A stretch of 64,000 nt of DNA from an uncultured Candidatus Saccharibacteria bacterium (GTDB lineage: Bacteria > Patescibacteriota > Minisyncoccia > Phycocordibacterales > UBA9973). Position numbers and translations under genes: made by a program. Positions 10,250 to 63,496 of this stretch are shown one piece after another. The stretch's first letter is position 1. Each line of letters starts with the position of its first letter. The stretch covers positions 209-64,208 of the forward strand of contig CAYNHU010000001.1 in NCBI GenBank assembly GCA_964397435.1, written 5' to 3'. The notes beneath the pieces were generated by a model, which saw only the letters and a program-made list of their open reading frames with translations, did no database searches and was not told the origin of the DNA.

Positions 10250-10284
10250 ACGGTTTTTATGGTTATTTCATCTAAATCTGCTAC

Positions 10285-12000: not shown

Positions 12001-12343
12001 GGCCAGTAGCAACAGATACTCGTGACATAGCTGTTGTTGCGCCACGATTTACAAATGAAACAGTTTTCGCTTCATGTAGACCAAGGGTTGCACCTGTATC
12101 AAGGTTAACTGCCTGCGCTTTTGCAAGGTATGCAACCTGAAGTTTTCCGATGTGTGCACTCAATGCCTGTGCTTCTTTCTGAGATGCAGAACGAGCCATG
12201 ATGTAGTGCACAGTTGAACCAAGCGCATATGCATACAACACAATACACAAACCAATCAAACCGAGTGCGATAAAAGCTGCACGCTTGTACAAAAGCGCGT
12301 CTTCAAATATTCGTGTTTGTGATTGTGTGTATGTTGTTGCCAT
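11990..12343 (-). CDS. ftsL: Cell division protein FtsL-like (single-pass membrane protein)
   Basis: 117-aa ORF with one TM helix between rsmH and ftsI, the conserved FtsL position; positional call. Confidence 0.55.
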   Translation of the reverse strand: MATTYTQSQTRIFEDALLYKRAAFIALGLIGLCIVLYAYALGSTVHYIMARSASQKEAQALSAHIGKLQVAYLAKAQAVNLDTGATLGLHEAKTVSFVNRGATTAMSRVSVATGHEF

Positions 12344-12353
12344 AAATGGTTAG

Positions 12354-13250
12354 TTATATTTTTTGGATAATGCGTAGTTTCGCACTACGTGAGCGTGGAT
12401 TGTGTGTAATTTCTTCTCGGGTCGGAGCAATCGGCTTTTTAGTAATGAGTACCGCCTGCTCGTTGTCGGTGTATGCCTTGAATGCGTTTTTAACGATGCG
12501 ATCTTCAAGCGAATGGAATGTGATAATCAGTAGTCGTCCACCAGGAGCAAGAATATCGAATGCTCCGAAGATTCCTTCAGTCAGTGCACGTAATTCATCG
12601 TTCACTGCAATACGGAGTGCTTGAAATGTTTTTGTCGCAGGATGCGTCTTGCCTTTTCGATACCAGAACGGTACGGCTGACTCAATGACTGCAACAAGAT
12701 CGAACGTTGTCTCAATTGGTTTCTGTTCACGAGCTTCTACGATAGCGTGTGCAATCTTGCGAGCAAATGTTTCTTCACCATAAGCGTAGATGATATCTGC
12801 AAGCGCACTTTCACTTGAAGTCATAACCAGATCGCGTGCAGTCAGTGTTTCGTCAGGGATAATCACGTCTTCCATCGTCATGAGCAATGGCTCATTTTTT
12901 TGAAATGTGAATCCTCGACCACTATCATCAAGCTGCACAGAACTGATACCGATATCAAGGAGTACTGCGTCGACATGTGTGAAACCGTGTGCTTTGACCT
13001 GTGAAGCAATCGTACGAAAGCTGTCATTAATCAAAATTGGTTTCGCACCGAGCGAAGCGAGTAATCGTTCTGATCGTTCGAGCGCATCGCGTTCTCGATC
13101 AAAACCGATAATCGTTACCTTGCCGCCAGTCGCTTCCCAGACAGCACGTGCGTGCCCGCCTGAACCAAGCGTACCGTCAACATAGATAGCATTCGGTTTG
13201 AGATTGAGACCATTGAGTGTTTCTTCTAAAAGAACTGGAATGTGCGGCAT
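12354..13250 (-). CDS. rsmH: 16S rRNA (cytosine1402-N4)-methyltransferase
   Basis: MraW/RsmH signature (IYVDGTLGSGGHA), SAM-binding fold; second gene of dcw cluster. Confidence 0.9.
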   Translation of the reverse strand: MPHIPVLLEETLNGLNLKPNAIYVDGTLGSGGHARAVWEATGGKVTIIGFDRERDALERSERLLASLGAKPILINDSFRTIASQVKAHGFTHVDAVLLDIGISSVQLDDSGRGFTFQKNEPLLMTMEDVIIPDETLTARDLVMTSSESALADIIYAYGEETFARKIAHAIVEAREQKPIETTFDLVAVIESAVPFWYRKGKTHPATKTFQALRIAVNDELRALTEGIFGAFDILAPGGRLLIITFHSLEDRIVKNAFKAYTDNEQAVLITKKPIAPTREEITHNPRSRSAKLRIIQKI

Positions 13251-13337
13251 ATATATTTTGTCGCCGCACTCACATTGTTTTGAGGAGGAACGTCGTAAAC
13301 CTTCTCAAAACAATGTGGGTGCTGCGAACGCGTTATG

Positions 13338-13772
13338 TTATAAAACCCCAATGCTTCCCAACTTTTCTGCAAGTTGATCAGCTTGACCTTCGACCACTTT
13401 CTTGTAATCAGCCCATGTCTTTTCGTTCCAAAGTTCAACACGGTTCTGGACACCAACAACAGCAACATTTTTCTTGAGACCAGCACGGTCTTTCAAGAAA
13501 TCAGGAACGAGGATACGTCCACTACCATCAACATCAACTTCAACTGCACCTCCAAACATGAATCGGTTGAAACTTCGGTTATCAGCTTGGAGCATTGAGT
13601 TTTCACCGAGACGGTTTGCAATCTTTTCCCATTCTTTGATGGTGAACATAAAGATTGATTTATCGAGACCTGGTGCAAGGACTACTTTTTTACCCAATTC
13701 ACTTCGAAATTTCGCAGGCAATGACATGCGATTTTTTTCGTCGAGCGTATGAATATATTCACCGATAAGCAT
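13338..13772 (-). CDS. mraZ: Transcriptional regulator MraZ
   Basis: Two MraZ repeats (LDEKNRMSLPAKFR... and GSGRILVPDFLKD); start taken at MLIGEY. Confidence 0.9.
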   Translation of the reverse strand: MLIGEYIHTLDEKNRMSLPAKFRSELGKKVVLAPGLDKSIFMFTIKEWEKIANRLGENSMLQADNRSFNRFMFGGAVEVDVDGSGRILVPDFLKDRAGLKKNVAVVGVQNRVELWNEKTWADYKKVVEGQADQLAEKLGSIGVL

Positions 13773-13843
13773 TGTATTGATTGTGATAGTAGTTACCTCG
13801 ACCCGAACGCACTCGCACAACGCACATTTGAAACTTTTTTAGT

Positions 13844-17163: not shown

Positions 17164-18195
17164 CTAGAGATACATGCGAATGCGCTTACGAAGCCATGAA
17201 AAGACCACATAGAGGACATAGAGAGGCTTGTGGATAATGAGATCATAGCTTCCAATCATTTTGACTGCTTCCCCACCAAAACCTTTTTTAAAATCAGTAA
17301 AACCAGCCCATGGATTGTGTGGATCATGCTCGTTTGGAGGCAAAATTCCCCACAAATCAAGTTTGATTGCACCGTGTTCTTTTCCAAAGACAATGACGTT
17401 CCACATGAGTGCGTTCATGGCTTTTAAGTTGCGGAATTCTGTTGATGATCCGGCGTAGGTGTAGTACAAGGTGTTATTGTGTAACCAGACTTCGCAGGCA
17501 GCGAGTGGTTGCCCGCGGTAGCGGGCAACGATCATGTGCGCGATAGCTCGATCTTTGAATGTGCGCCAGATGGTTTCGTGATACAAGCGACCGTGACCAC
17601 CGAAGTGCTGACGCTTGGTAGTTGCTTGATAGAGTTCGTAAAATGCTTCAAAACCACTGTCGGTATCTTCAACAGCAACAGTTACTCCTTTTCGTTCTGC
17701 AAGTCCGATATTGTAGCGTGTGGTTGCATCACATTTTTTCTTAATATTTTCGAGTGATTCAGTTAAGTCGATGATTCGAGTCCATTGGTAGAAGAGCGGT
17801 GTGCGGCTTTCTGCCAGCGCGGGCTTCGCCCGCGCTGGCACGTCCACTTCATCTGGCTCAAACAACACCGACACAATTCTATATCGTTTTCCATAGGCAC
17901 GAAGGTACGACAAAAAAGCTTCACTTGGAACTCGTGAGCGTGGAATATATCCAATCCAATACGGAACGAGTGGCAACTTGTGCAACGTCATCTGATACGC
18001 TGCATGTAACACATCGCCGTCATATTCACCAAAACGAACCACCCGCAAACCTGTGGCCTGACGAATACTTCCCCATGCAAAAAGTTGCAACGGATGCGTT
18101 ACTGATTGATCAAAAATCTGTGGTTCAACTGTATCAAGTTCTCGAATAGTCATAGTTAGTTTTGTGTGTACTCTGGTGTGTTCTGTGCCATCCAT
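17164..18195 (-). CDS. FemAB-family peptidoglycan-bridge aminoacyltransferase
   Basis: 343 aa; FemABX-like twin GNAT fold; adjacent to PBP2. Confidence 0.65.
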   Translation of the reverse strand: MDGTEHTRVHTKLTMTIRELDTVEPQIFDQSVTHPLQLFAWGSIRQATGLRVVRFGEYDGDVLHAAYQMTLHKLPLVPYWIGYIPRSRVPSEAFLSYLRAYGKRYRIVSVLFEPDEVDVPARAKPALAESRTPLFYQWTRIIDLTESLENIKKKCDATTRYNIGLAERKGVTVAVEDTDSGFEAFYELYQATTKRQHFGGHGRLYHETIWRTFKDRAIAHMIVARYRGQPLAACEVWLHNNTLYYTYAGSSTEFRNLKAMNALMWNVIVFGKEHGAIKLDLWGILPPNEHDPHNPWAGFTDFKKGFGGEAVKMIGSYDLIIHKPLYVLYVVFSWLRKRIRMYL

Positions 18196-19931
18196 TGTAA
18201 CTGATTAAGCGCAACAGCCGCGGCACCCGGAGCCGTCGCATCAGTTCCTCGTTCCATCATTACGACAAACGCATACCGGGGATTATCATACGGGAAAAAT
18301 CCAGTCGCCCACGCATTGATGAATTGATTGTTCACGCCAACCTGCGCGGTACCGGTTTTGACAGCAACTTTAAATGGCAGCGAGTTAAGCGCTTTTGCAG
18401 TTCCGTTTGGATCAGTCACAACGAGACGCATACCTTCGCGTACAACTTGGAAATAGTCTTTTGAGAGATCGAGATTTTGTTTTTGTGATTCAAATGAAGT
18501 ATCGCCTTTGCGCACGTGTGGAGAAACCAGCGTGCCATTATTTGCAATCGCCGCAACTGCGCGAATCATTTCAACTGGAGTTACTTGCACACCGTATTGT
18601 CCAATTGCAGTGTTGTAGGTGTCACCTACACGCCATGGATCACCAGGGAAATATTTCGCTTTCCATGCAGGACTTGGAATCGTACCACTCTTTTCATTTG
18701 GCAAATCAATATTCGTAGGAACACCAATACCAAACATTTTGAAATATTTACCAATGTTATCAATACCAATTCCTTTCTGTGATTGGTAACCGCCTCCAAC
18801 GTTATAAAAGAAAATGTTTGATGAATACGCAAGCGCATGACGCACATCAACAATACCGTTATCGGGACGGTAATCTTTGAATACACTTGGACGTGATGGA
18901 TCGTATGGATTTGGAATGGTAATTGAACCACGAGACACAATGCGTGTTGAAGGTGTAATAACGCCTTCAGTCAATGCACCCATTGCCATATATGGTTTTA
19001 CGATTGATCCCGGTGAATACAATCCAGCAACAGCACGATCCAAAAACGGCTTGTTGATGTCACGCAAATAAGCACGAATGCGTTCAACATCATCACCAAT
19101 TGACATCACATGTGAAGAATACTCAGGGAGACTCGTGATTGCGAGTAATTCACCTGTCGTAATGTCCATAATCAAACCAGCACCACCTTTGTACCCTGAC
19201 TGCTGCATTACACCGCGAATAGCATCAGCAAAATTTGCCTGCAATCGTGCGTCGATTGAAAGCGTTACGTTTTCACCTGGAACTGGTTTATAAATCTGAT
19301 TTGAAAGTGTTGTCTTACCATGCACATCACGTTCAATGAGGCGTGTACCATTTTGTCCACTTAAAATCTCGTTGTACTGTTTTTCAATCCCATCTTTACC
19401 AATAAATTCAGTTTGCCAAAAATTACCAGATGAATCTTTTGATGGATAGCTCACGTATCCAAGCAAGTGTCCGAAACCATTTTGAGCAATGTACGCACGT
19501 CGAGAAAATGGTTCATCTGTTGTTGGCTGTTCATTCCATGCAAGCAGCGTTCCGTTGCGATCATAAATAACACCACGCTCTGCAAAAATCGGCTCGCGTC
19601 CAAGTTGGTTTTGCTGACTCTGAGTAAAATAACTTGAACCTTTCAAACCCTGCATGTACAACAACCGAAATCCGAAAATACAAAAGATAATCAAAAAAAC
19701 AGATTGCACAACAAGCAATGTTTGCTTACTGATCGCTTGTTCGATACGTCCTTCAAATTGCTGCTTATCAAACTGAGGTAAGTTTTTTGCATCCAAAAAA
19801 ATCTCGTCTGGTTCTACGAATGCATGAGAGTAACGTTTTTTGAATCTAAAAAAATCAAATAGTGCCATAACGGGTAAAACGCTTGAGAGCTTCAATGACT
19901 GCAAAAAGTATCGCTCCGATAAGTGTTCCAA
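18156..19931 (-). CDS. mrdA: Penicillin-binding protein 2-like transpeptidase
   Basis: N-terminal TM, PBP dimerisation plus transpeptidase domain; second class B PBP in window. Confidence 0.8.
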   Translation of the reverse strand: MEHLSERYFLQSLKLSSVLPVMALFDFFRFKKRYSHAFVEPDEIFLDAKNLPQFDKQQFEGRIEQAISKQTLLVVQSVFLIIFCIFGFRLLYMQGLKGSSYFTQSQQNQLGREPIFAERGVIYDRNGTLLAWNEQPTTDEPFSRRAYIAQNGFGHLLGYVSYPSKDSSGNFWQTEFIGKDGIEKQYNEILSGQNGTRLIERDVHGKTTLSNQIYKPVPGENVTLSIDARLQANFADAIRGVMQQSGYKGGAGLIMDITTGELLAITSLPEYSSHVMSIGDDVERIRAYLRDINKPFLDRAVAGLYSPGSIVKPYMAMGALTEGVITPSTRIVSRGSITIPNPYDPSRPSVFKDYRPDNGIVDVRHALAYSSNIFFYNVGGGYQSQKGIGIDNIGKYFKMFGIGVPTNIDLPNEKSGTIPSPAWKAKYFPGDPWRVGDTYNTAIGQYGVQVTPVEMIRAVAAIANNGTLVSPHVRKGDTSFESQKQNLDLSKDYFQVVREGMRLVVTDPNGTAKALNSLPFKVAVKTGTAQVGVNNQFINAWATGFFPYDNPRYAFVVMMERGTDATAPGAAAVALNQLQWMAQNTPEYTQN

Positions 19932-40437: not shown

Positions 40438-40494
40438 CTTTTCCGGACTGGAAATTGAAATTTTTGTGAATATTATGTAGAATACGTGGTACTT

Positions 40495-40576
40495 GCCCTG
40501 GTGGCGGAATTGGTAGACGCGCTCGACTCAAAATCGAGTATCGTAAGATGTGGGAGTTCGACTCTCCCCCGGGGCA
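40495..40576 (+). tRNA. tRNA-Leu (anticodon CAA)
   Basis: Cloverleaf by eye: anticodon loop CTCAAAA, long variable arm, T-arm GGGAG-TTCGACT-CTCCC; 82 nt. Confidence 0.85.
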
Positions 40577-40578
40577 CA

Positions 40579-42080: not shown

Positions 42081-42088
42081 TACTTCTG

Positions 42089-42159
42089 CGGGCGATGAGG
42101 GAATCGAACCCCCGCCAATGGTTTTGGAGACCATTGTTCTGCCACTAAACTAATCGCCC
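42089..42159 (-). tRNA. tRNA-Trp (anticodon CCA)
   Basis: Cloverleaf by eye: acceptor GGGCGAT/ATCGCCC, anticodon loop CTCCAAA; 71 nt. Confidence 0.8.
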
Positions 42160-42523: not shown

Positions 42524-43648
42524 CTACTTGGTATAGATACGTGGCACTTGGGTGGCGATTCGTGTTACCAGTTCGTAGTTAATCGTACCGGCATGAAGCG
42601 CAACCTCTTCGGCACTTAGAATCTCTGTTTTGTCTTTGCCAATCAACGTTACGGTATCTCCGATTCGTACATTTGGAATGTCGGTAATGTCGACAACCAT
42701 CATGTTCATCATGATGCGCCCGAGGATACGGGCGCGCTTGCCACGCACCAGTACAAATCCCCGATTACTTGCACTACGCGGATATCCATCAGAGTACCCA
42801 ACTGGCAAAACCGCAACCACACTATCTCGTGTCACCTGCTCTGTTAAATCATAGCCAACATAACTACCAGCAGGTAATCTTTTTACTTCATTGATATAGG
42901 TGTGCCATGAAAGTGCGGGTGTGAGTTTTACACCTTGTGCGCGAAGCGCAGTTTCATCCGATGGCCACAATCCATAAATACCAATACCGAAGCGAACCAT
43001 ATCAAGACCAAATTCTGGTGAAAGAAATATTCCAGCAGTAGCACTTGCATGCACGATTGGATGCACTCCAATTTCATGTAACATTTTTTTCCATTCAAAA
43101 ATTGCAGTTACTTGCGCAACTGTGTACGCATCATATCTACTCATTTCAGAAGCAGCGAAGTGTGTAGCAAGCCCAACAACAACACAGTGTTTGTTTCCAG
43201 CAATGAGTGCGAGCACTCGTGTACTATCAGCAAGCAAAAAGCCATCACGCCCGAGACCAGTATCAGTCATCAAGTGTATACGAACTGGTTTTGCATATTT
43301 CTTCTTTGCAATATGTGTCAGCAACTCAAATGTTGAAACAGCAAGCTCGAGATTATACGTAACTGCAAGAGCAACTTCTTCAGGTAAAATACTGCGCAGT
43401 ACGAGAACTGGAGTTTTGATCCCCGCTTTACGCAACAGCACTCCCTCTTGAATATCGAAAACCGCAAGATAGGTTGCTCCGCCTTCAATTGCTGCACGCG
43501 CAACAGGAGCAAGCCCGTGACCGTACGCGTCAGCTTTGACTACAGCGAGTGCTTGTACACGTGACGCGACTTGCTTTCGTAATGTGCGCATGTTTGCTCG
43601 AATCGCTTGAATTGAGACATGCACCGATGTTCGTAAATGTGTTTTCAT
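42524..43648 (-). CDS. alr: Alanine racemase
   Basis: PLP-Lys motif (AVVKADAYGHG) and two-domain Alr fold. Confidence 0.88.
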   Translation of the reverse strand: MKTHLRTSVHVSIQAIRANMRTLRKQVASRVQALAVVKADAYGHGLAPVARAAIEGGATYLAVFDIQEGVLLRKAGIKTPVLVLRSILPEEVALAVTYNLELAVSTFELLTHIAKKKYAKPVRIHLMTDTGLGRDGFLLADSTRVLALIAGNKHCVVVGLATHFAASEMSRYDAYTVAQVTAIFEWKKMLHEIGVHPIVHASATAGIFLSPEFGLDMVRFGIGIYGLWPSDETALRAQGVKLTPALSWHTYINEVKRLPAGSYVGYDLTEQVTRDSVVAVLPVGYSDGYPRSASNRGFVLVRGKRARILGRIMMNMMVVDITDIPNVRIGDTVTLIGKDKTEILSAEEVALHAGTINYELVTRIATQVPRIYTK

Positions 43649-43651
43649 ATA

Positions 43652-46012
43652 TTAAAATCCTGTTGCGTTAATAATTGTTTCAAGTAATTCAAGTGGGTAG
43701 AGCGGTTTTGATTCTGCCAGTCCTTGGTGATACAGCACTGTTGACGGAGTAAGTCCGGGGAGCGTGTTAATTTCAATAACCGATATATTCCCTGTTCGTA
43801 ATTCAAGAAATGCGTCAATACGAGCATACCCGCGAATTCCGATCCGAGTAGCAACTTCGGTAATCAACTCCTGTGTTCGCGCAAGTACTTTTGGTTTTAT
43901 CAGTGAACGTGGTGGTGGCGTAATATTGACTCCCGTACCACCTTGAAATTTTTCTTCAACAGACAACACTGAACCTTCAGCAACAGTGATACTTGGCGCA
44001 AGTGCTCGAAGCGACGAACCGCGACGCTCAAGCACTCCGACAGTGACTTCAATCCAACCACTTTTGCGAACATGTTTGAGGGTATTACTTCGCATGCGAA
44101 TGACATCAGTGACAACATATGCTTCGAGTAATAATTCTTCAACACCATGCTGCGGCATTTCAACTTGTTCAAATTGCTGCGGAAATACACCTTTTGGTAT
44201 GTACGGTGCCTTGGTGTGAATGTACTCAACATACGTAGCCAAATCACGAGCGGATGTTAGCTGCACAATACCTGTCGAGCAACCATCACCACGCGGTTTG
44301 ACAATCAACGTTGGACTACCAATGCGCTCGGTATATGTGTTCCACTGTTTTTCATAATCAGTTGTATGTGAAAATGTTGCGTACTTTACTACCAGATGTT
44401 CAGGAACATTCACGCCAGCGATTTCAAATGCTTTAATTGTTTCATTGGTCTTCCATTTATCCATGCAAAGCGCAGATACTTCAGCGTTTGAGCCGTTGTA
44501 ACGCACCGCATGTGTAGTAAACAACTTTTGTAACGTACCATCCTCACCAATACCACCGTGGAGTGCAATAAACACAAATGGATTCCGTTTCGCAAATGTT
44601 TCAAGGTCATACCGCTCAGGAATAAAAAAGGATTCGGATGTATCACCAGCTTGTAATGCTAATTTGTGCTGCACTCGATCAGTTAACTCACGTAAACGTG
44701 TTATATGCTGCTCGGCTCGTTCAGCATTTGCGATAACTTCTTCGACGGTGTGATTTAGCACAAGCGCGTATGGAATTTTCCAGACGGAATGTTTGGTATC
44801 AAGAACATAGATAGTGGGTTTGTAGCGTTTTGACCGTCGCAATTTTAACCACACGTTTGTACCACTCATGAGAGAAACTTGGCGCTCTGCAGTTCCCCCG
44901 CCGCACAACACCGCAACAGGTTTTCGATCAGCAACTATTGGTTCTGGTTGGAGCAGCGGGAAGCCATGTCGGCGACACGCGTTATTGATGACATATCGAA
45001 GCACATCACGATGCGAGAAACCAATACGCGCCGCTTGCTGAAACAGAAAACTATTTTGTTCCATTCCTGAAATCGGATTAAAATCAGAAAACCAAATGTT
45101 TCCATCCGGAAGCACCCATCCATCAAAACGCGCAAAGTCACGCATGCCAAGCACGCTCCACAACTGCTCAGCTTGGATTTGAATTTTTTCAATAATCTCA
45201 TTTGAAAAACGAGGTGGGCAGTGATATGCAACTTGTCGTGTAGGTAAATATTTTTTACGAAAATCAAATACCTGATGTTCACTGTAATCAGCCTCAATTT
45301 CAGTTGGCATAATTGCTACACCTTGCCCAAACCGATTCTCAAGCAAAATAACTGTAAACTCGGTGCCCGTTGCGAATGGTTCAATGACAACACGAGTATC
45401 CATTCGTTTTGAGAAAATATACTGCGCGCGTTCGAGTGCTTCTTCGACGGTTGCTACAGAAAAAACACCGATGCTCGAACCACCAGTTGCTGGCTTAACT
45501 ATCGCTCGAGTAATGGCATGCTTTTTGAAAAATGCTTGCACGAGTTTTTTATGATCACGTCCATAAATTTTGAGTGCGAGTGATGGTAGTGTAAAAAAAC
45601 CGTGTTCAGCGATATATTCATTTGCTTTGTGCTTATCAAACACGCGTTTGCCCGCAATCTCTGGCGAGCCAACATGCGGGATATTATGTTTCGCAAGAAA
45701 TGCTTGGATGGTGCCATCTTCACCAAACGCTCCATGCATTGCAGGAAATACCAGTGTAACTTTTTTAAGTAGTGCGATGAGTGCACGTTCAGAAAGCGGC
45801 TTTCCTGTTTCAGCTAATTTAAAATCAAAATCAGATGGCGTGTTTGAATACAGCTGCGCCGGCGAAATCTGAAATGCTCGACGCTTTTGATCGAAATAAA
45901 TAGGAATAATCTCAACATCATCGCTGCGAACGTGATCGAGTACTGAACGTGCTGAGTTAAGTGAGATACCACGCTCAAGCGATGGACCGCCACAGAGGAC
46001 TGCAATTTTCAT
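43652..46012 (-). CDS. ddl: Tandem fusion of two D-alanine--D-alanine ligase (ATP-grasp) modules in one 786-aa polypeptide
   Basis: Module 1 (MKIAVLCGGPS...) and module 2 (KPVAVLCGGGTAERQVSL...) each contain full Ddl N, central and ATP-grasp C domains; 3-nt gap to alr. Confidence 0.8.
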   Translation of the reverse strand: MKIAVLCGGPSLERGISLNSARSVLDHVRSDDVEIIPIYFDQKRRAFQISPAQLYSNTPSDFDFKLAETGKPLSERALIALLKKVTLVFPAMHGAFGEDGTIQAFLAKHNIPHVGSPEIAGKRVFDKHKANEYIAEHGFFTLPSLALKIYGRDHKKLVQAFFKKHAITRAIVKPATGGSSIGVFSVATVEEALERAQYIFSKRMDTRVVIEPFATGTEFTVILLENRFGQGVAIMPTEIEADYSEHQVFDFRKKYLPTRQVAYHCPPRFSNEIIEKIQIQAEQLWSVLGMRDFARFDGWVLPDGNIWFSDFNPISGMEQNSFLFQQAARIGFSHRDVLRYVINNACRRHGFPLLQPEPIVADRKPVAVLCGGGTAERQVSLMSGTNVWLKLRRSKRYKPTIYVLDTKHSVWKIPYALVLNHTVEEVIANAERAEQHITRLRELTDRVQHKLALQAGDTSESFFIPERYDLETFAKRNPFVFIALHGGIGEDGTLQKLFTTHAVRYNGSNAEVSALCMDKWKTNETIKAFEIAGVNVPEHLVVKYATFSHTTDYEKQWNTYTERIGSPTLIVKPRGDGCSTGIVQLTSARDLATYVEYIHTKAPYIPKGVFPQQFEQVEMPQHGVEELLLEAYVVTDVIRMRSNTLKHVRKSGWIEVTVGVLERRGSSLRALAPSITVAEGSVLSVEEKFQGGTGVNITPPPRSLIKPKVLARTQELITEVATRIGIRGYARIDAFLELRTGNISVIEINTLPGLTPSTVLYHQGLAESKPLYPLELLETIINATGF

Positions 46013-46138
46013 ACTTTTTGCAAAAATAATCTCACTAAAAAGCTAATAAAATCAAGCTAAAAAACAAAATACTACCTATAGTATATAAAATCATGCTTTT
46101 TTTGCAAGATAATTGGGGTGCAAAAAACAAAGAAAAAG

Positions 46139-46179: not shown

Positions 46180-47025
46180 TTACTTAATCTCTAGAAAGTC
46201 AATTTTGCGGTTATTCGCATACACTGGATTCAAGCTTGTACCCGCTTTGATAATCATCCGAACACTCGGATTTACTCCAGCAGGAAATGTTCTTAAAACA
46301 GTACAAGTTACCAGGTGTGGTTTATCACCTTGATGATAGTCCATGTTCGGTGTTCCCTGAAAAATTTCTCCTGTCGTTAGGCAATCAAATTTATAGTACA
46401 CACCTTCAGTATCTGCAGGATCAGCCCAGATATCAGCTTGGATAGTAATCCAAAATACAGAACTCGTGGTTGCATTACCAGGTAATGTATAGCTGGCGAC
46501 TGTGAAATCTGAATTCAGGTTTGTAGAAACTGTTGCAGTTTGCTCAAACGAACCCCAGCCAGAAACTAATCCTGTTGCACCTGTAGCACCAGTGGCACCA
46601 GTGACTCCAATGTTTCCTGTAGCGCCTGTGTTACCTATCGGATCTTGCGGGCCGGTAGGACCAGTGAGAATTGGCAACGTAAACGTTTGACCGTTACGCA
46701 AAACTACAACACCGTTGGGTAAAATAGTATCAATATCGTGCGCAGATTCTGCCGCATATAATGCATACGGCACACTCATAATTGGAGTAACACCCATAGC
46801 AACAGGTTGCCCTCCGCCGTTAATGTCGCACTCAACTAATAAATGTAAATCAGATTGCGCCCAATTGATACTACTAAATGTTTCAACAAGTGGTGTGCCT
46901 TTACCAATCCATGCCGTAAACAAACCAAATTGGTTTGTCATACAGGTATGTGTTTCAGAATATATCGGAAACGCTTGGTTGATACCATTCAGTATCGCAA
47001 ATTTAACCGGAATACTTTGGTTCAC
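46180..47025 (-). CDS. Collagen-like (Gly-X-Y) repeat surface protein, BclA-like three-part architecture
   Basis: N-domain, then 13 G-X-Y triplets (GPTGPQDPIGNTGATGNIGVTGATGATGATG), then a C-terminal beta-rich domain of about 120 aa; the first in-frame start is GTG. Confidence 0.55.
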   Translation of the reverse strand: MNQSIPVKFAILNGINQAFPIYSETHTCMTNQFGLFTAWIGKGTPLVETFSSINWAQSDLHLLVECDINGGGQPVAMGVTPIMSVPYALYAAESAHDIDTILPNGVVVLRNGQTFTLPILTGPTGPQDPIGNTGATGNIGVTGATGATGATGLVSGWGSFEQTATVSTNLNSDFTVASYTLPGNATTSSVFWITIQADIWADPADTEGVYYKFDCLTTGEIFQGTPNMDYHQGDKPHLVTCTVLRTFPAGVNPSVRMIIKAGTSLNPVYANNRKIDFLEIK

Positions 47026-48125: not shown

Positions 48126-50108
48126 TTACAAATCAAACGAATCACTAATCACTCCCTTTCCTGCATGGAACGTTGGTGATGTATATATTTTCTGATAGAC
48201 ACCGTCTTGGTTTTTCGCTTCGACTGTCACATAGACATCAGATCGAGGAACCAAAATGTAGTAGAGACCTTCTTCATCAGTGACACGGTGTGCAATTTCA
48301 TGATTGAGACTTGCGCTCCATACTCGAACAATTGCGTATGGAACTGGCGCACCTTGATATGTCACTCTACCTGTTTTAACTGGGCCAAAACCAAATGATT
48401 GAAGAATCACAATCAAAACATAGAAACCAACCATGAGCATGTTCCACCATGTTGGAGATGTAAAGGTAATGATAATTGAAATGATGAAACCGAGAACGAA
48501 CGCGACATTAAAGAGTGTGTCCCAGAGCGCATGATTGCGTGTGAAGTAGTGCAAAAGATTTCGACGACGCTTCTGTTCTTGATTCCAGTCATTGGTGAGT
48601 GGATCCATTGGAACGTTCAATGTAATGACTTTTTCTTCTCCTGTCACTGCAAATGTTTCTCCGAAATACAAATTTTCATAAACTGAATCTTGCATTTGTC
48701 CAGCAAGCACTTTTGACGGGAACAAGTAGTTTGTTTTATTAACGATGATCTTGTATGTACCCTTCTTAAGGAAGAATCCGTATCGTCCATCAATGTCAGT
48801 AATTTGATTGAGAACTTCTTTGCCAGTTTCTGCATCTAATACAGAAACATACGCAGGATCAAGTGGTTCTTTACTAACAGCATCAAACACAACCCCCCAA
48901 GGACGCTTGCGACGATACAGTACTACAGTGAGAAGCATTCCACCGAAACGTGCAATCAATCCTGGTACAGTAGTAAGCAAACCGACGATTCCAATGGTAA
49001 TTGGAACGACTGGAGGAATTGTTTCAATATTTGGGATGCTAAAACCTCCAGTTGGAATTCCAAAGAAGCTGCCTGTACTGCCTGATGAACCACTTCCTGA
49101 AGTTCCTGTTGATCCTGAAGTTGTAGTTCCAGAAGTTCCTGTGCCTGATGTGCTAGTACCAGACGAACTACCGCCACCAATGAATTCAGTTATATCGCCA
49201 CCAGTAAATCCTCCAGAGAAGCCACCTGAGCTACCACCAGAAGAACCTGATGATCCACTACCACCAGATGTTCCCGTTGTACCTGTTGAACTAGTTCCTG
49301 ATGATGAACCATTACCTGAAGTTCCTGTTGATCCTGAAGTTGTTGAACCAGAAGTGCCTGTGCCTGATGTACTAGTACTGCCGGTAGAACCAGTTGAACC
49401 ACTACCACCTGTTGTAGATGTAGTTGGAGGTAATACAACACCACTTGAGCCACCGCCAGAACCTCCTGAACCACCACTTGAACCAGTACTACAACCAGGC
49501 CATGTTGTTTTCAAACCACTGTAGCCTGTCTGTGTTGATGCGAGTTCAATATATCCATAGTTTTCTGACCATACTTGTCCTGAGATTTGTCCTGTTCCAA
49601 GATCAATATGCGGTGCAACAAGTGCATTTTGAGGTGCAAAGTTTATCCATCCAGTGTTTTCACCCCATGCACAACCACCAAGTACACCAGTACATGCATT
49701 AGTAACATGAGATACACCATTACATTTTCCAGGTAACGGATCAGGTGCATTTATAGGATTCAAATTAATCCAGCCAATAGTCTCACCCCAGATTTTTCCA
49801 GTGATTGCAGTATCAGTAACCTGCACAGGTTCAGGACAAAGGTTCGTTGGATATGTTCCCCCGCACAATGGAAACCAGTTAATTAAATCTCGTACGAAAT
49901 CTTTGTTGAGATCAATATCATGAGAACCGAGGTTATCGTAAAATTGAGAGAATTTTAGATTCCAATCAATTCCTCCGGTTGCCGCATGTGCCTGAAATGG
50001 AACAAGCGTAAATGCTAGTAGCACGACCAAAAACACACTCTTCTTAATCGCCATGAGGGCGTATGAATGTAATATAGTAACAATTTTCATGTAAAGAAAG
50101 TATACCAA
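48126..50108 (-). CDS. Large secreted Gly/Ser/Thr-rich surface protein with C-terminal TM helices
   Basis: 660 aa; signal peptide (MAIKKSVFLVVLLAFTLVPFQAHA, probable true start near 50054), beta-rich N-domain, two long GS/GT low-complexity tracts, C-terminal TM helices. Confidence 0.6.
   Translation of the reverse strand: MVYFLYMKIVTILHSYALMAIKKSVFLVVLLAFTLVPFQAHAATGGIDWNLKFSQFYDNLGSHDIDLNKDFVRDLINWFPLCGGTYPTNLCPEPVQVTDTAITGKIWGETIGWINLNPINAPDPLPGKCNGVSHVTNACTGVLGGCAWGENTGWINFAPQNALVAPHIDLGTGQISGQVWSENYGYIELASTQTGYSGLKTTWPGCSTGSSGGSGGSGGGSSGVVLPPTTSTTGGSGSTGSTGSTSTSGTGTSGSTTSGSTGTSGNGSSSGTSSTGTTGTSGGSGSSGSSGGSSGGFSGGFTGGDITEFIGGGSSSGTSTSGTGTSGTTTSGSTGTSGSGSSGSTGSFFGIPTGGFSIPNIETIPPVVPITIGIVGLLTTVPGLIARFGGMLLTVVLYRRKRPWGVVFDAVSKEPLDPAYVSVLDAETGKEVLNQITDIDGRYGFFLKKGTYKIIVNKTNYLFPSKVLAGQMQDSVYENLYFGETFAVTGEEKVITLNVPMDPLTNDWNQEQKRRRNLLHYFTRNHALWDTLFNVAFVLGFIISIIITFTSPTWWNMLMVGFYVLIVILQSFGFGPVKTGRVTYQGAPVPYAIVRVWSASLNHEIAHRVTDEEGLYYILVPRSDVYVTVEAKNQDGVYQKIYTSPTFHAGKGVISDSFDL
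49106..49380. repeat. Internal near-identical direct repeats (about 66 nt, copies at 49106-49172 and 49315-49380) within the low-complexity linker
   Basis: cctgaagttcctgttgatcctgaagttgt... appears twice with about 90% identity. Confidence 0.6.
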
Positions 50109-57452: not shown

Positions 57453-57536
57453 GCCCAGATGATGAAACTGGTAGACATAGGGGACTTAAAATCCCCAGGC
57501 AGCAATGCCGTGTGGGTTCGATTCCCACTCTGGGCA
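57453..57536 (+). tRNA. tRNA-Leu (anticodon UAA)
   Basis: Cloverleaf by eye: anticodon loop CTTAAAA, long variable arm; 84 nt; no intron. Confidence 0.85.
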
Positions 57537-57607
57537 CGTTACATTGATTATATAAATCTTTATTTATATTTTATAAGTATTTTTTGAGTGTATTATAAAA
57601 TACACTT

Positions 57608-58057
57608 ATGGCACACAGAAAAGGGAAAGTTCAAATCACCTGGAATGCCAATTTTGCCTATGTGCTTGGTATTATTGCTGCTGATGGAAATCTTTCTCCT
57701 GACGGCAGGCATATCAATATCACATCAAAAGATTACGAACTGGTTTTAAAATGCAAAAAATCTCTCGGTTTAAAAAATAAAATCGGCCGCAAGGCACGAG
57801 GAGGATCAATAAATAAAAAATATTCTGTTCTTCAATTTGGTGATATTGTTTTCTATAATTTTCTGATCAAGATTAGTTTTACTCCAAATAAATCACGTAC
57901 ACTCTCAAAAATACAACTGCCTCAACAATATTTCAGAGATTTTTTACGTGGATGTATTGATGGCGATGGAAGTATTAGTATTTCCAGACATCCTGAAAGT
58001 AATCATGATCAATATAAGATACGTCTTTGCTCAGGTAGCAGAAAATTTTTAGTTTGA
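57608..58057 (+). CDS. LAGLIDADG-family homing endonuclease, two-motif monomeric type, apparently truncated by an in-frame TGA (frame stays open to 58252)
   Basis: Motif 1 LGIIAADGNL and motif 2 LRGCIDGDGSIS; after TGA at 58055 the same frame continues for 64 codons into tRNA-Leu(UAG); AT-rich. Confidence 0.65.
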   Translation: MAHRKGKVQITWNANFAYVLGIIAADGNLSPDGRHINITSKDYELVLKCKKSLGLKNKIGRKARGGSINKKYSVLQFGDIVFYNFLIKISFTPNKSRTLSKIQLPQQYFRDFLRGCIDGDGSISISRHPESNHDQYKIRLCSGSRKFLV

Positions 58058-58237: not shown

Positions 58238-58321
58238 GGGCAAGTGGCGTAATTGGTAGCCGCACTGCGCTTAGGACGCAGCGAGAGTAATCTCATGGGA
58301 GTTCGAGTCTCCCCTTGCCCA
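58238..58321 (+). tRNA. tRNA-Leu (anticodon UAG)
   Basis: Cloverleaf by eye: anticodon loop CTTAGGA, long variable arm; 84 nt. Confidence 0.85.
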
Positions 58322-58382
58322 CAAACACAAAAAAGATTGAATTTTCTGTGTTTTCGTGTATACTTAAAAACGTTTTAGTACT

Positions 58383-60391: not shown

Positions 60392-60718
60392 TTATTGAGG
60401 AAGTACGATAGGTGTTCCTGGTGGGCCTTGAATCCCGAATGTATTGATGATTAATCGCATAATGCCAAAGACTGACACCATAATCAATAAACCAACCAAA
60501 CCCCAGAAAATATGTCGCTTACCGTCCATGACCGCCTTTTCTTCCCCACCACCTTGATTCATGAGAAATTCAACAATTCCCCAAATGAACACAAGGAGTG
60601 CGAGTGCCATCATAAATACGATAATCGGATTTATGATTTGTGTACCGAGACGATAAATCAATGTATCGATCGTTACAGCATGCGCGATATGAGTACTGGT
60701 AAACCACCATCCAAACAT
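60392..60718 (-). CDS. Pilin-like two-helix membrane protein, paralog 1 (minimal form)
   Basis: 108 aa; hydrophobic helix, GGGEEKAVMDGKRH loop, hydrophobic helix. Confidence 0.5.
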   Translation of the reverse strand: MFGWWFTSTHIAHAVTIDTLIYRLGTQIINPIIVFMMALALLVFIWGIVEFLMNQGGGEEKAVMDGKRHIFWGLVGLLIMVSVFGIMRLIINTFGIQGPPGTPIVLPQ

Positions 60719-60723
60719 ATAAA

Positions 60724-61104
60724 TTATTGACAGCCAGGTGTAAGAGGATCGTTGTCGATCACACAGGGGATCTGACTTGAGTTAAGTGTACCGCCACCAA
60801 CACCGAAGAGTGTCTGGAGAGCAGCTACGAGACCCCAGATTGAGAGGATCACAAAGAGACCAATAACACCGTAGAAAATAGCGTTCTTTGCTTTTGCACG
60901 CTCTTCTTCGTTTGTTTTTGTAACGAAACTGATGATTGCCCATGCGATGTAAAGGAAACCGAGGGTAATCAAAACTGGCATCAAGTAACTAAGCACTTTC
61001 TGCAAGATGTTCAAGAGCGCAAACAACTGTGTTGCGTCCTGAGCGAAAGCAACAAATGGTGTAAACGCAAGTGCGATCAATCCTGCTTTTTTCAAATTCT
61101 TCAT
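60724..61104 (-). CDS. Pilin-like secreted protein, paralog 2 (signal peptide + two-helix module, VirB2/TrbC-like topology)
   Basis: 126 aa; signal peptide, helix, TKTNEEERAKAKNA loop, helix, Gly-rich tail. Confidence 0.55.
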   Translation of the reverse strand: MKNLKKAGLIALAFTPFVAFAQDATQLFALLNILQKVLSYLMPVLITLGFLYIAWAIISFVTKTNEEERAKAKNAIFYGVIGLFVILSIWGLVAALQTLFGVGGGTLNSSQIPCVIDNDPLTPGCQ

Positions 61105-61198
61105 ACTATGAATTACTAAAAACTAATAATGTGACCTTATACCTATACACCTAGTATACCATAAGCAACTCCCCTGTATGCAAGTGAGTTACCCACAT

Positions 61199-61831
61199 TT
61201 AGATGCCGAACAACATTCGCATTGCACCAACAATACCCCAAACAGAAAGCATCACGAACAGTGCGAGCACGCCCCAAAGCATAATCTGTTTGGACTTCTT
61301 GCGTTCCTCAACTGAATCAGCAGAAAGTACATACTGAACTACTCCCCAGGTGAAATAGAGTGACGCAAAACTAATCGCAATCGTAATCAAAAAATTATTA
61401 ATGACACACGTTGCGACAATAAAAATATCTCGGAATGTTTTAATACTCACCTTACAGGTAGCAGCCTGAGAAACAGCTGACTGGTTGGTTGCCTTGCCTG
61501 CATTATACAAACCAGTGTTTACATCTGTGTATGATTGGTTTGGATTAAAAATGTCTTTGTTGATTGTATTGTTTGAAGCATTGGCTGCATCTTTTGCACT
61601 TGTATTTGCTGACTGTGCTTGTGTGTTAATCCACTGGTTGTAGATAGAACCACTTGGCAATGAACTGTTAGTTGAACTCGCATTCCACTGAATGTTCTGA
61701 TTGTCAGCAGCACCTTGAGAATATGAACTATCGTAATTTGTTGCCGGTGTTGTTTGAGCAAACACACTCAATGGCAAAAACACACTGAGGGCAATCACAC
61801 TTATGAAACTAATGATTACTTTTGTACGCAT
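61199..61831 (-). CDS. Pilin-like secreted protein, paralog 3, with Asn/Gln/Ser/Thr-rich N-terminal extension
   Basis: 210 aa; signal peptide, low-complexity N/Q/S/T region, C-terminal helix-SADSVEERKKSKQ-helix module. Confidence 0.55.
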   Translation of the reverse strand: MRTKVIISFISVIALSVFLPLSVFAQTTPATNYDSSYSQGAADNQNIQWNASSTNSSLPSGSIYNQWINTQAQSANTSAKDAANASNNTINKDIFNPNQSYTDVNTGLYNAGKATNQSAVSQAATCKVSIKTFRDIFIVATCVINNFLITIAISFASLYFTWGVVQYVLSADSVEERKKSKQIMLWGVLALFVMLSVWGIVGAMRMLFGI

Positions 61832-61839
61832 GGGAAATA

Positions 61840-62244
61840 TTAGGCCATGAACGCCTCAATCGTTGCTTTAATAACTGTTGCAATCATCCACGCTCCAAGC
61901 AATACGCCAGCACCAATGAGTGTGTAGAGCAGTCGTGTTTTTGCTTTTTCAAGTTTCTCACTATTACCGCGAGCGAGCACGAACATCAAACCTGCATAAA
62001 TGATAAAGGCAGCAACGATTGGAATTGCGACTTTAAGAATGATACCAAGCAGTTTAGCAATAAATGATGAGAAATCTGAGACGTTAATTGGGTTCTGAAT
62101 TTTACCAACAGCCTGTGTAGCGGTTGTTTGAGGAGTAGCCGGACCAGCTGATTGACCACCCGCTGCATAGACAAGAGAAACTGGAACGAGCATAACTGCG
62201 AACATTCCCAAACTAACAATGAGTGATGCAAAATATGTTTTCAT
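61840..62244 (-). CDS. Pilin-like secreted protein, paralog 4
   Basis: 134 aa; signal peptide, helix-ARGNSEKLEKAKTR-helix. Confidence 0.55.
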   Translation of the reverse strand: MKTYFASLIVSLGMFAVMLVPVSLVYAAGGQSAGPATPQTTATQAVGKIQNPINVSDFSSFIAKLLGIILKVAIPIVAAFIIYAGLMFVLARGNSEKLEKAKTRLLYTLIGAGVLLGAWMIATVIKATIEAFMA

Positions 62245-62248
62245 ATTA

Positions 62249-63496
62249 TTATAAGAAACTACTATACGCTCCCCCGACGCCGAAGGCAGCTAAAATTGTT
62301 TTGATAATTAAGACCGCCATAAGGATAAATATAAAGCCGATCGCAACGTTGATAAAGATACCTTTCGCTTTTGCACGAGCTTCTTCACTTGCGCCGTTAG
62401 TCAAATACAAGAAACCAGCATACGCAAAGAGTGCTGCAGCAATCGGTACTGTTGCGTAAATCAACCATGTGAGTGCTTTGTTAAACATTGTCATGAGCTC
62501 ATTCCATCCGCAACGAGAAAGCGAAAGTCGTCCGTCGCACGGAACGAGTCCGCCTGACATATCAGGTGATGTATTCTTGGCTACTTTTGATGATACTGGT
62601 ACGAGTGGTTGTGTTGGGGTTGTTGGGGTTATTGGCGTAGTTGGAGTTGTAGACGCACCAAACATACCGGTAACATACTCGTTGCCTTCCTCATCAATCA
62701 AACGATAGCTGATTGTTTTTGGGTCGATAGTAAAACTCTGACTATCAACGACAAATCCCTGTGTTGTTGGGAGTGTATAGGTAAGTGTCTGTGGTGCGGT
62801 TGCTCCAACAGATCGAGTACCAAAGTTTGGGACTTCACCAGAGAAAAAGATACTCGCATGATACGTAAGTACAAAGTCTGCATCATGTCCTGATGCGGGA
62901 GTGTCGTAAATTGTGAATGTGACTGTCAGACCATCGCTACTTACGGATGGAACAACAGTGAGACCATTAACAACGCCTGCGCCATATGTCGGTGATGTTG
63001 GTGTTGTGGGCGTGGTTGGAGTTGTTGGTGTAGTTGGAGTTGTTGACGGAACAACAAACGTACCAGTGTGATATACCTTGCCGAGTGCAACGTCACGGAT
63101 TTCGTATGTGTAGTTTGTACCTGCAGCCATTCCTGTGTATGGAACTTCAATAGTAACTTCTGTTTTTTTGTTTGCCGGTGTGTTTGCGGCTCGTGTTCCA
63201 ATACCAGACACAGTATGAACATCTGCCACATCGCCTGTTGGCCACCAGACACCAATGAAATCAATTTTTGCATCAGTAGCTCCTGTCGCCCAAAAACTTT
63301 GAATGAATGTTGTATCTGCTTGTCCAGGATACTGATTAGCAATATCAGTTGTCGGATCAACGACAACGGTATTTACGTTCTGTGCCCACACTGGAATCGA
63401 ACCAAAAAGTGCAGTGAGTATAAGTATGCCAAGTACAACAATAATCGATAGGTATCGAGTAATGTGTGTGCTGTGATTGCATAAGTATGTTTTCAT
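62249..63496 (-). CDS. Pilin-like secreted protein, paralog 5, with two Ig-like extracellular domains joined by (TPTTP)n linkers
   Basis: 415 aa; signal anchor, two homologous beta-rich domains each followed by TPTTPTTP repeats, C-terminal helix-TNGASEEARAKAKG-helix module. Confidence 0.55.
   Translation of the reverse strand: MKTYLCNHSTHITRYLSIIVVLGILILTALFGSIPVWAQNVNTVVVDPTTDIANQYPGQADTTFIQSFWATGATDAKIDFIGVWWPTGDVADVHTVSGIGTRAANTPANKKTEVTIEVPYTGMAAGTNYTYEIRDVALGKVYHTGTFVVPSTTPTTPTTPTTPTTPTSPTYGAGVVNGLTVVPSVSSDGLTVTFTIYDTPASGHDADFVLTYHASIFFSGEVPNFGTRSVGATAPQTLTYTLPTTQGFVVDSQSFTIDPKTISYRLIDEEGNEYVTGMFGASTTPTTPITPTTPTQPLVPVSSKVAKNTSPDMSGGLVPCDGRLSLSRCGWNELMTMFNKALTWLIYATVPIAAALFAYAGFLYLTNGASEEARAKAKGIFINVAIGFIFILMAVLIIKTILAAFGVGGAYSSFL

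Follow-up and report, generated by a model that had tools for sequence, protein, structure and literature searches.

Two ligase modules on one polypeptide

The DNA analysed here, a 64,000-nucleotide stretch (the window) of contig CAYNHU010000001.1 from an uncultured Candidatus Saccharibacteria bacterium, carries on its minus strand, at positions 43652–46012, a gene for a tandem Ddl (D-alanine:D-alanine ligase) in which two ligase modules are joined in one protein. The gene is a single open reading frame (ORF) encoding 786 amino acids (aa) plus a stop, and inspection of the ORF and its codons found no internal stop. The whole protein matches the Pfam domains Dala_Dala_lig_N (E = 1.6e-45) and Dala_Dala_lig_C (E = 1.8e-44) in two stretches each, and the C-terminal half alone (aa 356–786) matches them at 1.2e-19 and 4.8e-16, respectively. 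An AVLCGG motif opens both halves. Sequence matches in the Protein Data Bank (PDB) comprised 37 to the N-terminal half (Ddl chains, with E down to 1.4e-26) and 36 distinct Ddl/VanA sequences to the C-terminal half, the latter spanning all three subdomains. These results bear out the first-pass annotation of the window, which had described two full Ddl modules in one 786-aa protein, each with a VLCGG motif.

The N module (aa 1–349; 44966–46012, minus strand) is a canonical-looking D-Ala:D-Ala ligase, as judged from Pfam, NCBIfam and PDB matches and from its mapping onto Escherichia coli DdlB (PDB 2dln). The C module (aa 364–786; 43655–44923, minus strand) is a divergent Ddl paralogue with an intact catalytic core, and the linker between them (aa 350–363; 44924–44965, minus strand) is variable in sequence and length. 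The modules are 23% identical to each other and only about 27% identical to DdlB. Against the NCBIfam Ddl model TIGR01205 (cut-off 245.65 bits), the separate modules reach 188.6 bits (N) and 139 bits (C), both under the cut-off, and the protein passes only as the sum of its two modules (322.1 bits). Because neither half alone reaches this curated threshold, sub-threshold single modules probably explain why many database copies of the tandem protein are named ‘hypothetical protein’.

We numbered residues after E. coli DdlB, using a sequence that agrees with PDB 2dln/1iov at 306 of 306 positions. Both modules keep the equivalents of Glu15, His63, Lys97, Lys144, Glu180, Glu187, Lys215, Arg255, Asp257, Glu/Asp270 and Asn272. 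In the N module the key residues are Glu13, His93, Lys127, Lys173, Ser179/Ser180, Glu211, Lys254-Tyr255, Arg295, Asp297, Asp310, Asn312 and Ser321-Phe322 (codons confirmed); in the C module the catalytic residues are Glu376, His485, Lys519, Lys572, Glu630, Glu655, Lys688, Arg731, Asp733, Glu747 and Asn749. The catalytic set is kept in each module in 120 of 120 close homologues and in almost all of 150 distant representatives, so the degenerate duplicate that the first-pass annotation had allowed for, with catalytic residues lost from one module, is not what the family contains.

The modules differ at a small number of other positions, each essentially invariant within its own module: N and C carry Ser and Cys, respectively, at position 150, Tyr and Phe at 216, Asp (a conservative change) and Glu at 270, Ser and Thr at 281, and Phe and Val at 282. 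The N module thereby retains the Glu15-Ser150-Tyr216 triad of DdlB together with Ser281 (as Ser179, Tyr255 and Ser321), departs from DdlB in having Asp for Glu270 and Phe for Leu282, and on these residues looks like an ordinary Ddl. The C module does not carry the Ser150, Tyr216 and Ser281 equivalents: its specificity residues are Cys578 (44279–44281), Phe689 (43946–43948) and Thr758-Val759 (from 43739), all with codons confirmed. In a 158-sequence alignment (the window protein, the 150 representatives, which stand for clusters at 50% identity, and 7 further cluster members), Cys578 is kept in 140 sequences, Phe689 in 142 and Thr758 in 135, the remainder being mostly gaps. The C module also differs from DdlB by three insertions, one of them a 29-residue helix at aa 423–451 in the secondary structure of the model described below.

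An AlphaFold2 model of the 786-aa protein reached a pLDDT of 88.6 and a pTM of 0.88, with pLDDT below 50 only in the omega loop of the C module (aa 680–693) and reduced, at about 60, in that of the N module. Foldseek comparison with PDB Ddl chains gave target-normalised TM-scores of 0.77–0.89 and a three-subdomain ATP-grasp fold for each module, and the Leuconostoc ligase LmDdl2 (PDB 1ehi) was among the top structural matches. No PDB chain found by Foldseek covers both modules; the search returned single-module chains only (query-normalised TM-score ≤0.40). Each module thus has the same fold and catalytic residues as DdlB (2dln/1iov), but DdlB is a homodimer of 306-aa subunits whereas the window protein is a single-chain tandem. 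A pTM of 0.88 over 786 residues implies a defined geometry between the modelled modules. Dimerisation is recurrent among solved Ddl structures (PMC6899670); because of this and of the high pTM, the simplest reading of the model is that the modules pack as an intramolecular version of the Ddl dimer.

Family conservation and the plant counterpart

The tandem protein belongs to a large and coherent family. In a large protein database, more than 120 clusters match it over its full length at 57–71% identity, with source names spanning many Patescibacteria lineages, and an exhaustive search of representatives of 50%-identity clusters returned 374 clusters at E ≤ 1e-30. Scanning one genome per GTDB species, we found the tandem gene in at least 554 genomes, mostly Patescibacteria. 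The fusion is therefore conserved in relatives, a point that the first-pass annotation had singled out for checking, and its remark that so many Ddl units are unusual for a small genome does not hold, the tandem gene being the standard arrangement across Patescibacteria. With module-specific hidden Markov models, the N type precedes the C type in 157 of 157 proteins (the 150 representatives and 7 cluster members).

Constraint is distributed similarly over the two halves. Mean pairwise identity is 48% in the N module, 43% in the C module and 17% in the linker; conservation of ≥95% is reached by 42 of 349 columns in the N module, by 55 of 418 in the C module and by none in the linker. The stretch that spans the linker (aa 346–368) is mostly 23–25 residues long in relatives (typically about 24). 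These patterns indicate that both modules are under equal purifying selection and that the linker is free to vary, which rules out one half as a decaying pseudogene. An assembly artefact, whether a missed stop (as the first-pass annotation had considered), a frameshift or a chimera, is likewise ruled out: the ORF is uninterrupted, two contigs that were assembled independently, from different sequencing runs, carry the identical protein, and hundreds of homologues are full length, some of them on megabase contigs. We therefore assign a negligible probability to any explanation of the fusion as an artefact or as a half-pseudogene.

Tandem copies also occur in metagenome-assembled genomes (MAGs) that are not labelled as members of the candidate phyla radiation (CPR). 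These (L024, L033, L048, L064, L070, L074 and L077) are labelled Gammaproteobacteria, Thiotrichales or Pseudomonadota (one on a 2.0-Mb contig), Parachlamydiales, and TM6/Dependentiae, and their copies are 55–59% identical to the window protein. The nearest relative of the TM6-labelled copy (82% identity) lies on the same contig as L064, which is labelled Pseudomonadota; its next relatives, at 66–69%, are named Sungii-, Magasanik- and Parcubacteria, so that it nests among CPR-named copies. Such outliers may reflect horizontal transfer among host-associated bacteria, or mis-binning.

The closest architectural parallel lies outside bacteria. Plant DDL has two Ddl modules in one polypeptide (PMC9954125), and the Arabidopsis (At-DDL) and Physcomitrium (PpDDL, BAE45860) proteins carry them in the same order as the window protein. 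We used the Coffea orthologue XP_027176337 (P0178), a nuclear protein of 956 aa, for comparison. Its residues 82–949 align with residues 2–782 of the window protein in one stretch, at 45% identity (E = 2.2e-170). Module by module, N matches plant N at 45% identity (311 bits) and C matches plant C at 38% (290 bits), whereas cross-module pairs score 42–57 bits. At 17 compared sites the C modules of Coffea and the window are identical and the N modules differ at one non-catalytic site; both proteins share the module signatures, Ser/Tyr/Ser-Phe with Asp270 in N and Cys/Phe/Thr-Val in C. Because the Coffea protein aligns over its full length at 45% with both signatures, we identify the window gene, at the level of sequence, as the bacterial counterpart of plant tandem DDL. 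Plant DDL differs in having an N-terminal extension of about 80 aa, presumably a transit peptide, which the bacterial protein does not have, and the bacterial gene sits in an operon with alr (alanine racemase), unlike plant DDL.

In a neighbour-joining tree of 163 tandem proteins (767 columns, 100 bootstraps), Coffea groups with three probably eukaryotic clusters at a bootstrap of about 80, and the bootstrap for any bacterial sister group of plant DDL is ≤16. For the moss enzyme, the literature gives only a loose placement of its origin, either in the Gram-negative FCB group or with enzymes of ‘diverse origins’ (PMC9434261). In Arabidopsis, expression of the C-terminal half of the protein persists in ddl insertion lines, which has been proposed as one reason for their normal phenotype (PMC9954125). 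The two-module Ddl architecture is already known, but our literature search found no description of bacterial tandem Ddls or of a link between CPR bacteria and plant DDL. Three points appear to be unreported in the literature searched: that the two active sites are differentiated in a fixed way, how widely the family occurs in Patescibacteria, and that it is equivalent to plant DDL over its full length.

Genomic neighbourhood and the single-module copy

The gene next to the tandem ddl is alr (42524–43648, minus strand), which scores 310 bits on TIGR00492 (cut-off 168). The junction is 3 nt long (TAA-tat-ATG), as the first-pass annotation had stated, but the order it gave is reversed: both genes lie on the minus strand, and alr follows the fusion downstream. 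The same arrangement, with alr directly downstream on the same strand, recurs in 26 of 80 related loci, and no other neighbour is as recurrent; the two genes are probably co-transcribed. The next gene on the strand is rpmG, for ribosomal protein L33 (42290–42457, minus), identified from its ORF translation and from a Pfam tag on an identical contig (L002), and the same-strand run ends with tRNA-Trp(CCA) (42088–42159, minus). In the 167-nt spacer upstream of the fusion, a promoter-like site (TTGCAA-16-TATACT; 46080–46107, minus) is weak evidence for a start of transcription, and a promoter and terminator scan counted no more sites in the region than expected from shuffled sequence. A hairpin followed by a T-run precedes the site and probably ends the upstream gene.

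Natural fusions place the family within a pathway. One relative of 1262 aa (P0160) reads Ddl-Ddl-MurF, its MurF part scoring 323 bits on TIGR01143, above the cut-off, and another of 1638 aa (P0179) joins four enzymes on one chain as Ddl-Ddl-MurF-Alr. On the strength of these Rosetta-stone fusions to MurF and Alr, the sequences assign the tandem Ddl to the branch of stem-peptide synthesis that leads from L-Ala through D-Ala and the dipeptide to MurF. In a Paceibacterota MAG (L034:5974–9543), Ddl-Ddl is fused instead to a class I/II pyridoxal-phosphate-dependent aminotransferase. Chlamydial MurC-Ddl (NF011171) and MurF-Alr (PRK11930) likewise unite enzymes of the same pathway in one chain, but they join different enzymes, whereas the tandem Ddl joins two paralogues of the same one.

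Within the window, the enzyme that presumably uses the dipeptide is a MurF-like Mur ligase of 434 aa (8945–10249, minus strand; Pfam Mur_ligase_M and Mur_ligase_C), whose N-terminal domain is missing and which scores 236.5 bits on TIGR01143, under the cut-off of 288.6. It forms part of a compact dcw-type cluster (8945–13820, minus) with a mraZ-like gene, rsmH (MraW), a small FtsL-like ORF and an FtsI-type penicillin-binding protein (PBP). A FemAB-family transferase gene (17164–18195, minus) lies 26 kb from the tandem ddl and shares 40 nt with the 3′ end of a second PBP (transpeptidase) gene (17164–19931, minus), an arrangement that suggests a co-translated pair for cross-bridge formation and cross-linking.

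The window holds one further Ddl-like gene, an ORF of 305 aa at 307–1224 on the minus strand, which the first-pass annotation had counted as a third Ddl-like catalytic unit. A Ddl-like ORF is indeed present there, but it is not a complete Ddl. It scores 16.9 bits on Dala_Dala_lig_C, under the Pfam threshold of 24; its equivalents of Glu15, Lys97, Lys144, Glu180, Arg255, Asp257, Glu270 and Asn272 are all substituted; and, like its nearest relatives (300–317 aa, 50–59% identity), it has lost about 25 residues comprising the whole omega loop, with Lys215-Tyr216, and part of the Ser loop too. The replacement residues vary between relatives. The ORF is an omega-loop-less paralogue of the ordinary single-module Patescibacteria Ddl of about 333 aa (for example P0327 and P0332; 40–42% identity), its parent family, in which 16 of 16 key residues are intact in P0327 but lost in the window copy and its close relatives. 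Among the matches listed, 69 of 90 more distant homologues keep all 16 checked residues. Much of the Ddl dimer interface comes from the N domain; this domain is still well conserved, including the stretch HG.YGEDG...IPYTGSG, and in one related locus (L007) a copy of this type (305–1231) lies directly upstream of the tandem gene.

On these residue losses we regard the single-module ORF as catalytically dead; the paralogue may be retained for a non-catalytic role, for instance as a partner, or may be slowly decaying. With its omega loop and catalytic residues gone, the window holds two plausible catalytic units, both in the tandem protein, and not the three proposed at first.

Several other features of the window were recorded in passing. 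The ORF upstream of the tandem ddl (46180–47025, minus) encodes 281 aa with collagen-like (GxT)n repeats and no Pfam match, and a 660-aa product (48126–50108, minus) combines long low-complexity stretches rich in Gly, Ser and Thr with a weak CarboxypepD_reg-like domain; the two are probably surface proteins. Two ORF starts fall inside tRNA genes, so that the real starts lie further downstream: the ‘MiaA’ ORF start at 40486 falls inside tRNA-Leu(CAA) (40486–40577), with a later start such as MEKQAITR..., and a methyltransferase ORF start at 42134 falls inside tRNA-Trp (42088–42159). A free-standing LAGLIDADG-domain ORF of 149 aa (57608–58057, plus strand; PF14528, E = 2.2e-9) sits inside a tRNA gene cluster, flanked by tRNA-Leu(TAA) at 57453–57537 and tRNA-Leu(TAG) at 58238–58322, with no rRNA nearby. 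A run of small secreted or membrane ORFs (60392–63496, minus) closes with a protein of 415 aa whose C-terminal domain is T4SS_pilin (PF18895, E = 1e-7), consistent with type IV secretion or pilus loci described for Patescibacteria.

C-module specificity and competing explanations

In characterised Ddls, whether a dipeptide or a depsipeptide is made depends on the Tyr216-Glu15-Ser150 triad: the Y216F mutant of DdlB gains D-Ala-D-Lac activity, and the F258Y exchange in Lactobacillus reuteri Ddl removes that activity and lowers the vancomycin minimum inhibitory concentration from >256 to 1.5 µg/ml (PMC3378904). Since exchange of Tyr216 for Phe gives depsipeptide activity in known Ddls, a divergent specificity of the C module is plausible by analogy. 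This much of the first-pass proposal, that the modules may differ in substrate specificity, finds support: the differences fall exactly at second-substrate positions (Ser/Tyr/Ser versus Cys/Phe/Thr). The Van-type identity it had offered as an example does not. Like Van and LmDdl2 ligases, which have Phe or His at the omega-loop specificity position, the C module has a non-Tyr residue there (the family-invariant Phe689), and it shares this Phe with LmDdl2, L. reuteri Ddl and DdlB Y216F (PDB 1iow). In the Phe-type Ddls of lactic acid bacteria, however, position 150 is still Ser (Phe258-Glu17-Ser186 being the triad in L. reuteri), where the C module has an invariant Cys; Phe-type Ddls are without the C-module insertions, and the C module has no specific sequence affinity to them, scoring 79.8 bits on NF000206 (cut-off 550) against 139 on TIGR01205.

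We favour, with moderate confidence, the reading that the window gene encodes a plant-type tandem D-alanine ligase consisting of two anciently diverged and rigidly packed paralogues, of which the N module makes D-Ala-D-Ala and the C module is active with a shifted specificity. In this scheme Alr would convert L-Ala to D-Ala, and the N module, with its Glu-Ser-Tyr triad and Ser281 intact, would make D-Ala-D-Ala for MurF. With the window's single-module copy dead, the N module is probably the only working canonical Ddl of the cell. The C module would be an active ligase too, activating D-Ala as the acyl phosphate, because the equivalents of Glu15, His63, Arg255, Asp257, Glu270 and Asn272 are all kept, and it should still bind a second substrate with an alpha-carboxylate, given that it retains Arg255 and a hydroxyl at position 281. 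The analogy with DdlB Y216F and with the Phe-type enzymes of lactic acid bacteria suggests that the Glu-Cys-Phe ‘triad’ of the C module would relax specificity or shift it towards a D-hydroxy acid (giving D-Ala-D-Lac) or towards some other product of the form D-Ala-D-X. The modelled packing, most simply an intramolecular copy of the Ddl homodimer, would make the fusion a hard-wired heterodimer.

Several points weigh against a second product. Our literature searches turned up no biochemistry on any bacterial member or on the separate plant halves. The C module shows no greater affinity to Van or LmDdl2 ligases than it does to ordinary Ddls, and neutral drift early in the history of the family could account for its Phe. 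The precursors of moss are reported to be ordinary D-Ala-D-Ala pentapeptides (PMC9434261), so no second product has been seen where it was looked for. Among the scanned ORFs of the window we found neither a D-lactate dehydrogenase nor a D,D-dipeptidase, and making both D-Ala-D-Ala and D-Ala-D-Lac from one polypeptide brings no obvious advantage. As regards the role of the N module, another functional ddl may lie outside the 64-kb window.

The most serious competitor, a real possibility though clearly the less probable one, is that the C module also makes D-Ala-D-Ala, forming with the N module an in-cis pair resembling DdlA and DdlB, or that it serves mainly as a structural or allosteric dimer partner without a distinct product. 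DdlB Y216F still makes D-Ala-D-Ala. Both modules score best on generic Ddl models, the pTM of 0.88 implies a fixed pairing, and Ddls are recurrently dimeric (PMC6899670); the moss pathway, too, reportedly yields an ordinary D-Ala-D-Ala pentapeptide of the diaminopimelic acid (DAP) type (PMC9434261). Yet if the C module were a mere partner, one would not expect all eleven ATP-, Mg2+- and transition-state-binding residues to persist across the divergence of plants and bacteria, and the single-module ORF displays what relaxed catalytic constraint looks like in this context, a pattern the C module does not share. Nor would a plain second ligase be expected to fix Cys150, Phe216 and Thr281 where the N module has Ser, Tyr and Ser.

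Acquisition of the C module as a Van-type resistance ligase, making D-Ala-D-Lac or D-Ala-D-Ser to escape glycopeptides, is improbable, even though Phe replaces the omega-loop Tyr as it does in intrinsically vancomycin-resistant lactic acid bacteria. On the models for Van and D-Ala-D-Lac/Ser ligases (NCBIfam NF000206, NF000207 and those for VanA/B/C/D/G, among others), the C module scores 52–90 bits against cut-offs of 495–775, and the N module 76–140 bits; these sub-cut-off scores largely refute Van membership of the C module, which also has no His244-type residue. No vanH dehydrogenase, vanX or vanY peptidase or vanT racemase was found among the ORFs scanned in the window or among recurrent neighbours in the 80 related loci, and the adjacent racemase scores as alr and not as VanT-G (280 bits against a VanT-G cut-off of 460). 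The C module is, moreover, conserved vertically throughout the family, including plants, and does not behave as a mobile resistance gene, and an intact N module making D-Ala-D-Ala on the same chain would defeat resistance. Still less credible is the suggestion of the first-pass annotation that the extra dipeptide feeds interpeptide bridges through the FemAB-family transferase. A gene of that family is present in the window and overlaps a PBP gene, but FemXAB/MurM-family enzymes transfer single residues from aminoacyl-tRNA and not free dipeptides, and a dipeptide supply conflicts with that donor chemistry. The FemAB gene lies 26 kb away and does not recur as a neighbour in the 80 loci, the natural fusions to MurF and Alr point to the stem-peptide branch, and the double protein is conserved in plants, the stem pentapeptide of moss being reported as the ordinary DAP type (PMC9434261).

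The tandem Ddl appears to be the standard means by which Patescibacteria make the D-Ala-D-Ala terminus of the stem peptide, and in this genome it is probably the only working one. It thus counts among the core cell-wall enzymes of a huge and uncultivated radiation, and automated annotation often misses it by naming it ‘hypothetical’. The two halves of chloroplast DDL are not known to have been separated functionally; the bacterial family presents them as differentiated enzymes with fixed, different triads and offers a concrete contrast for point mutants (Tyr255 and Ser179 in N versus Phe689 and Cys578 in C). It also provides a large set of intron-free orthologues that should express more easily, and the natural combination of one Tyr-type and one Phe-type site on a single chain is a useful system in which to study how Ddls choose between dipeptide and depsipeptide. 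With the bacterial family defined, there is now a reference against which to examine where plant DDL came from. More speculatively, and with rather low confidence, the C module may be a distinct, unnamed ligase, characterised by its Glu-Cys-Phe triad, that joins D-Ala to a D-hydroxy acid or another D-amino acid from Patescibacteria to land plants, the latter having received the whole cassette by horizontal transfer from a bacterium with a Patescibacteria-type tandem gene and not from the cyanobacterial ancestor of plastids. If so, both the walls of CPR bacteria and plant ‘DDL’ would involve a second, unrecognised D-Ala-X product.

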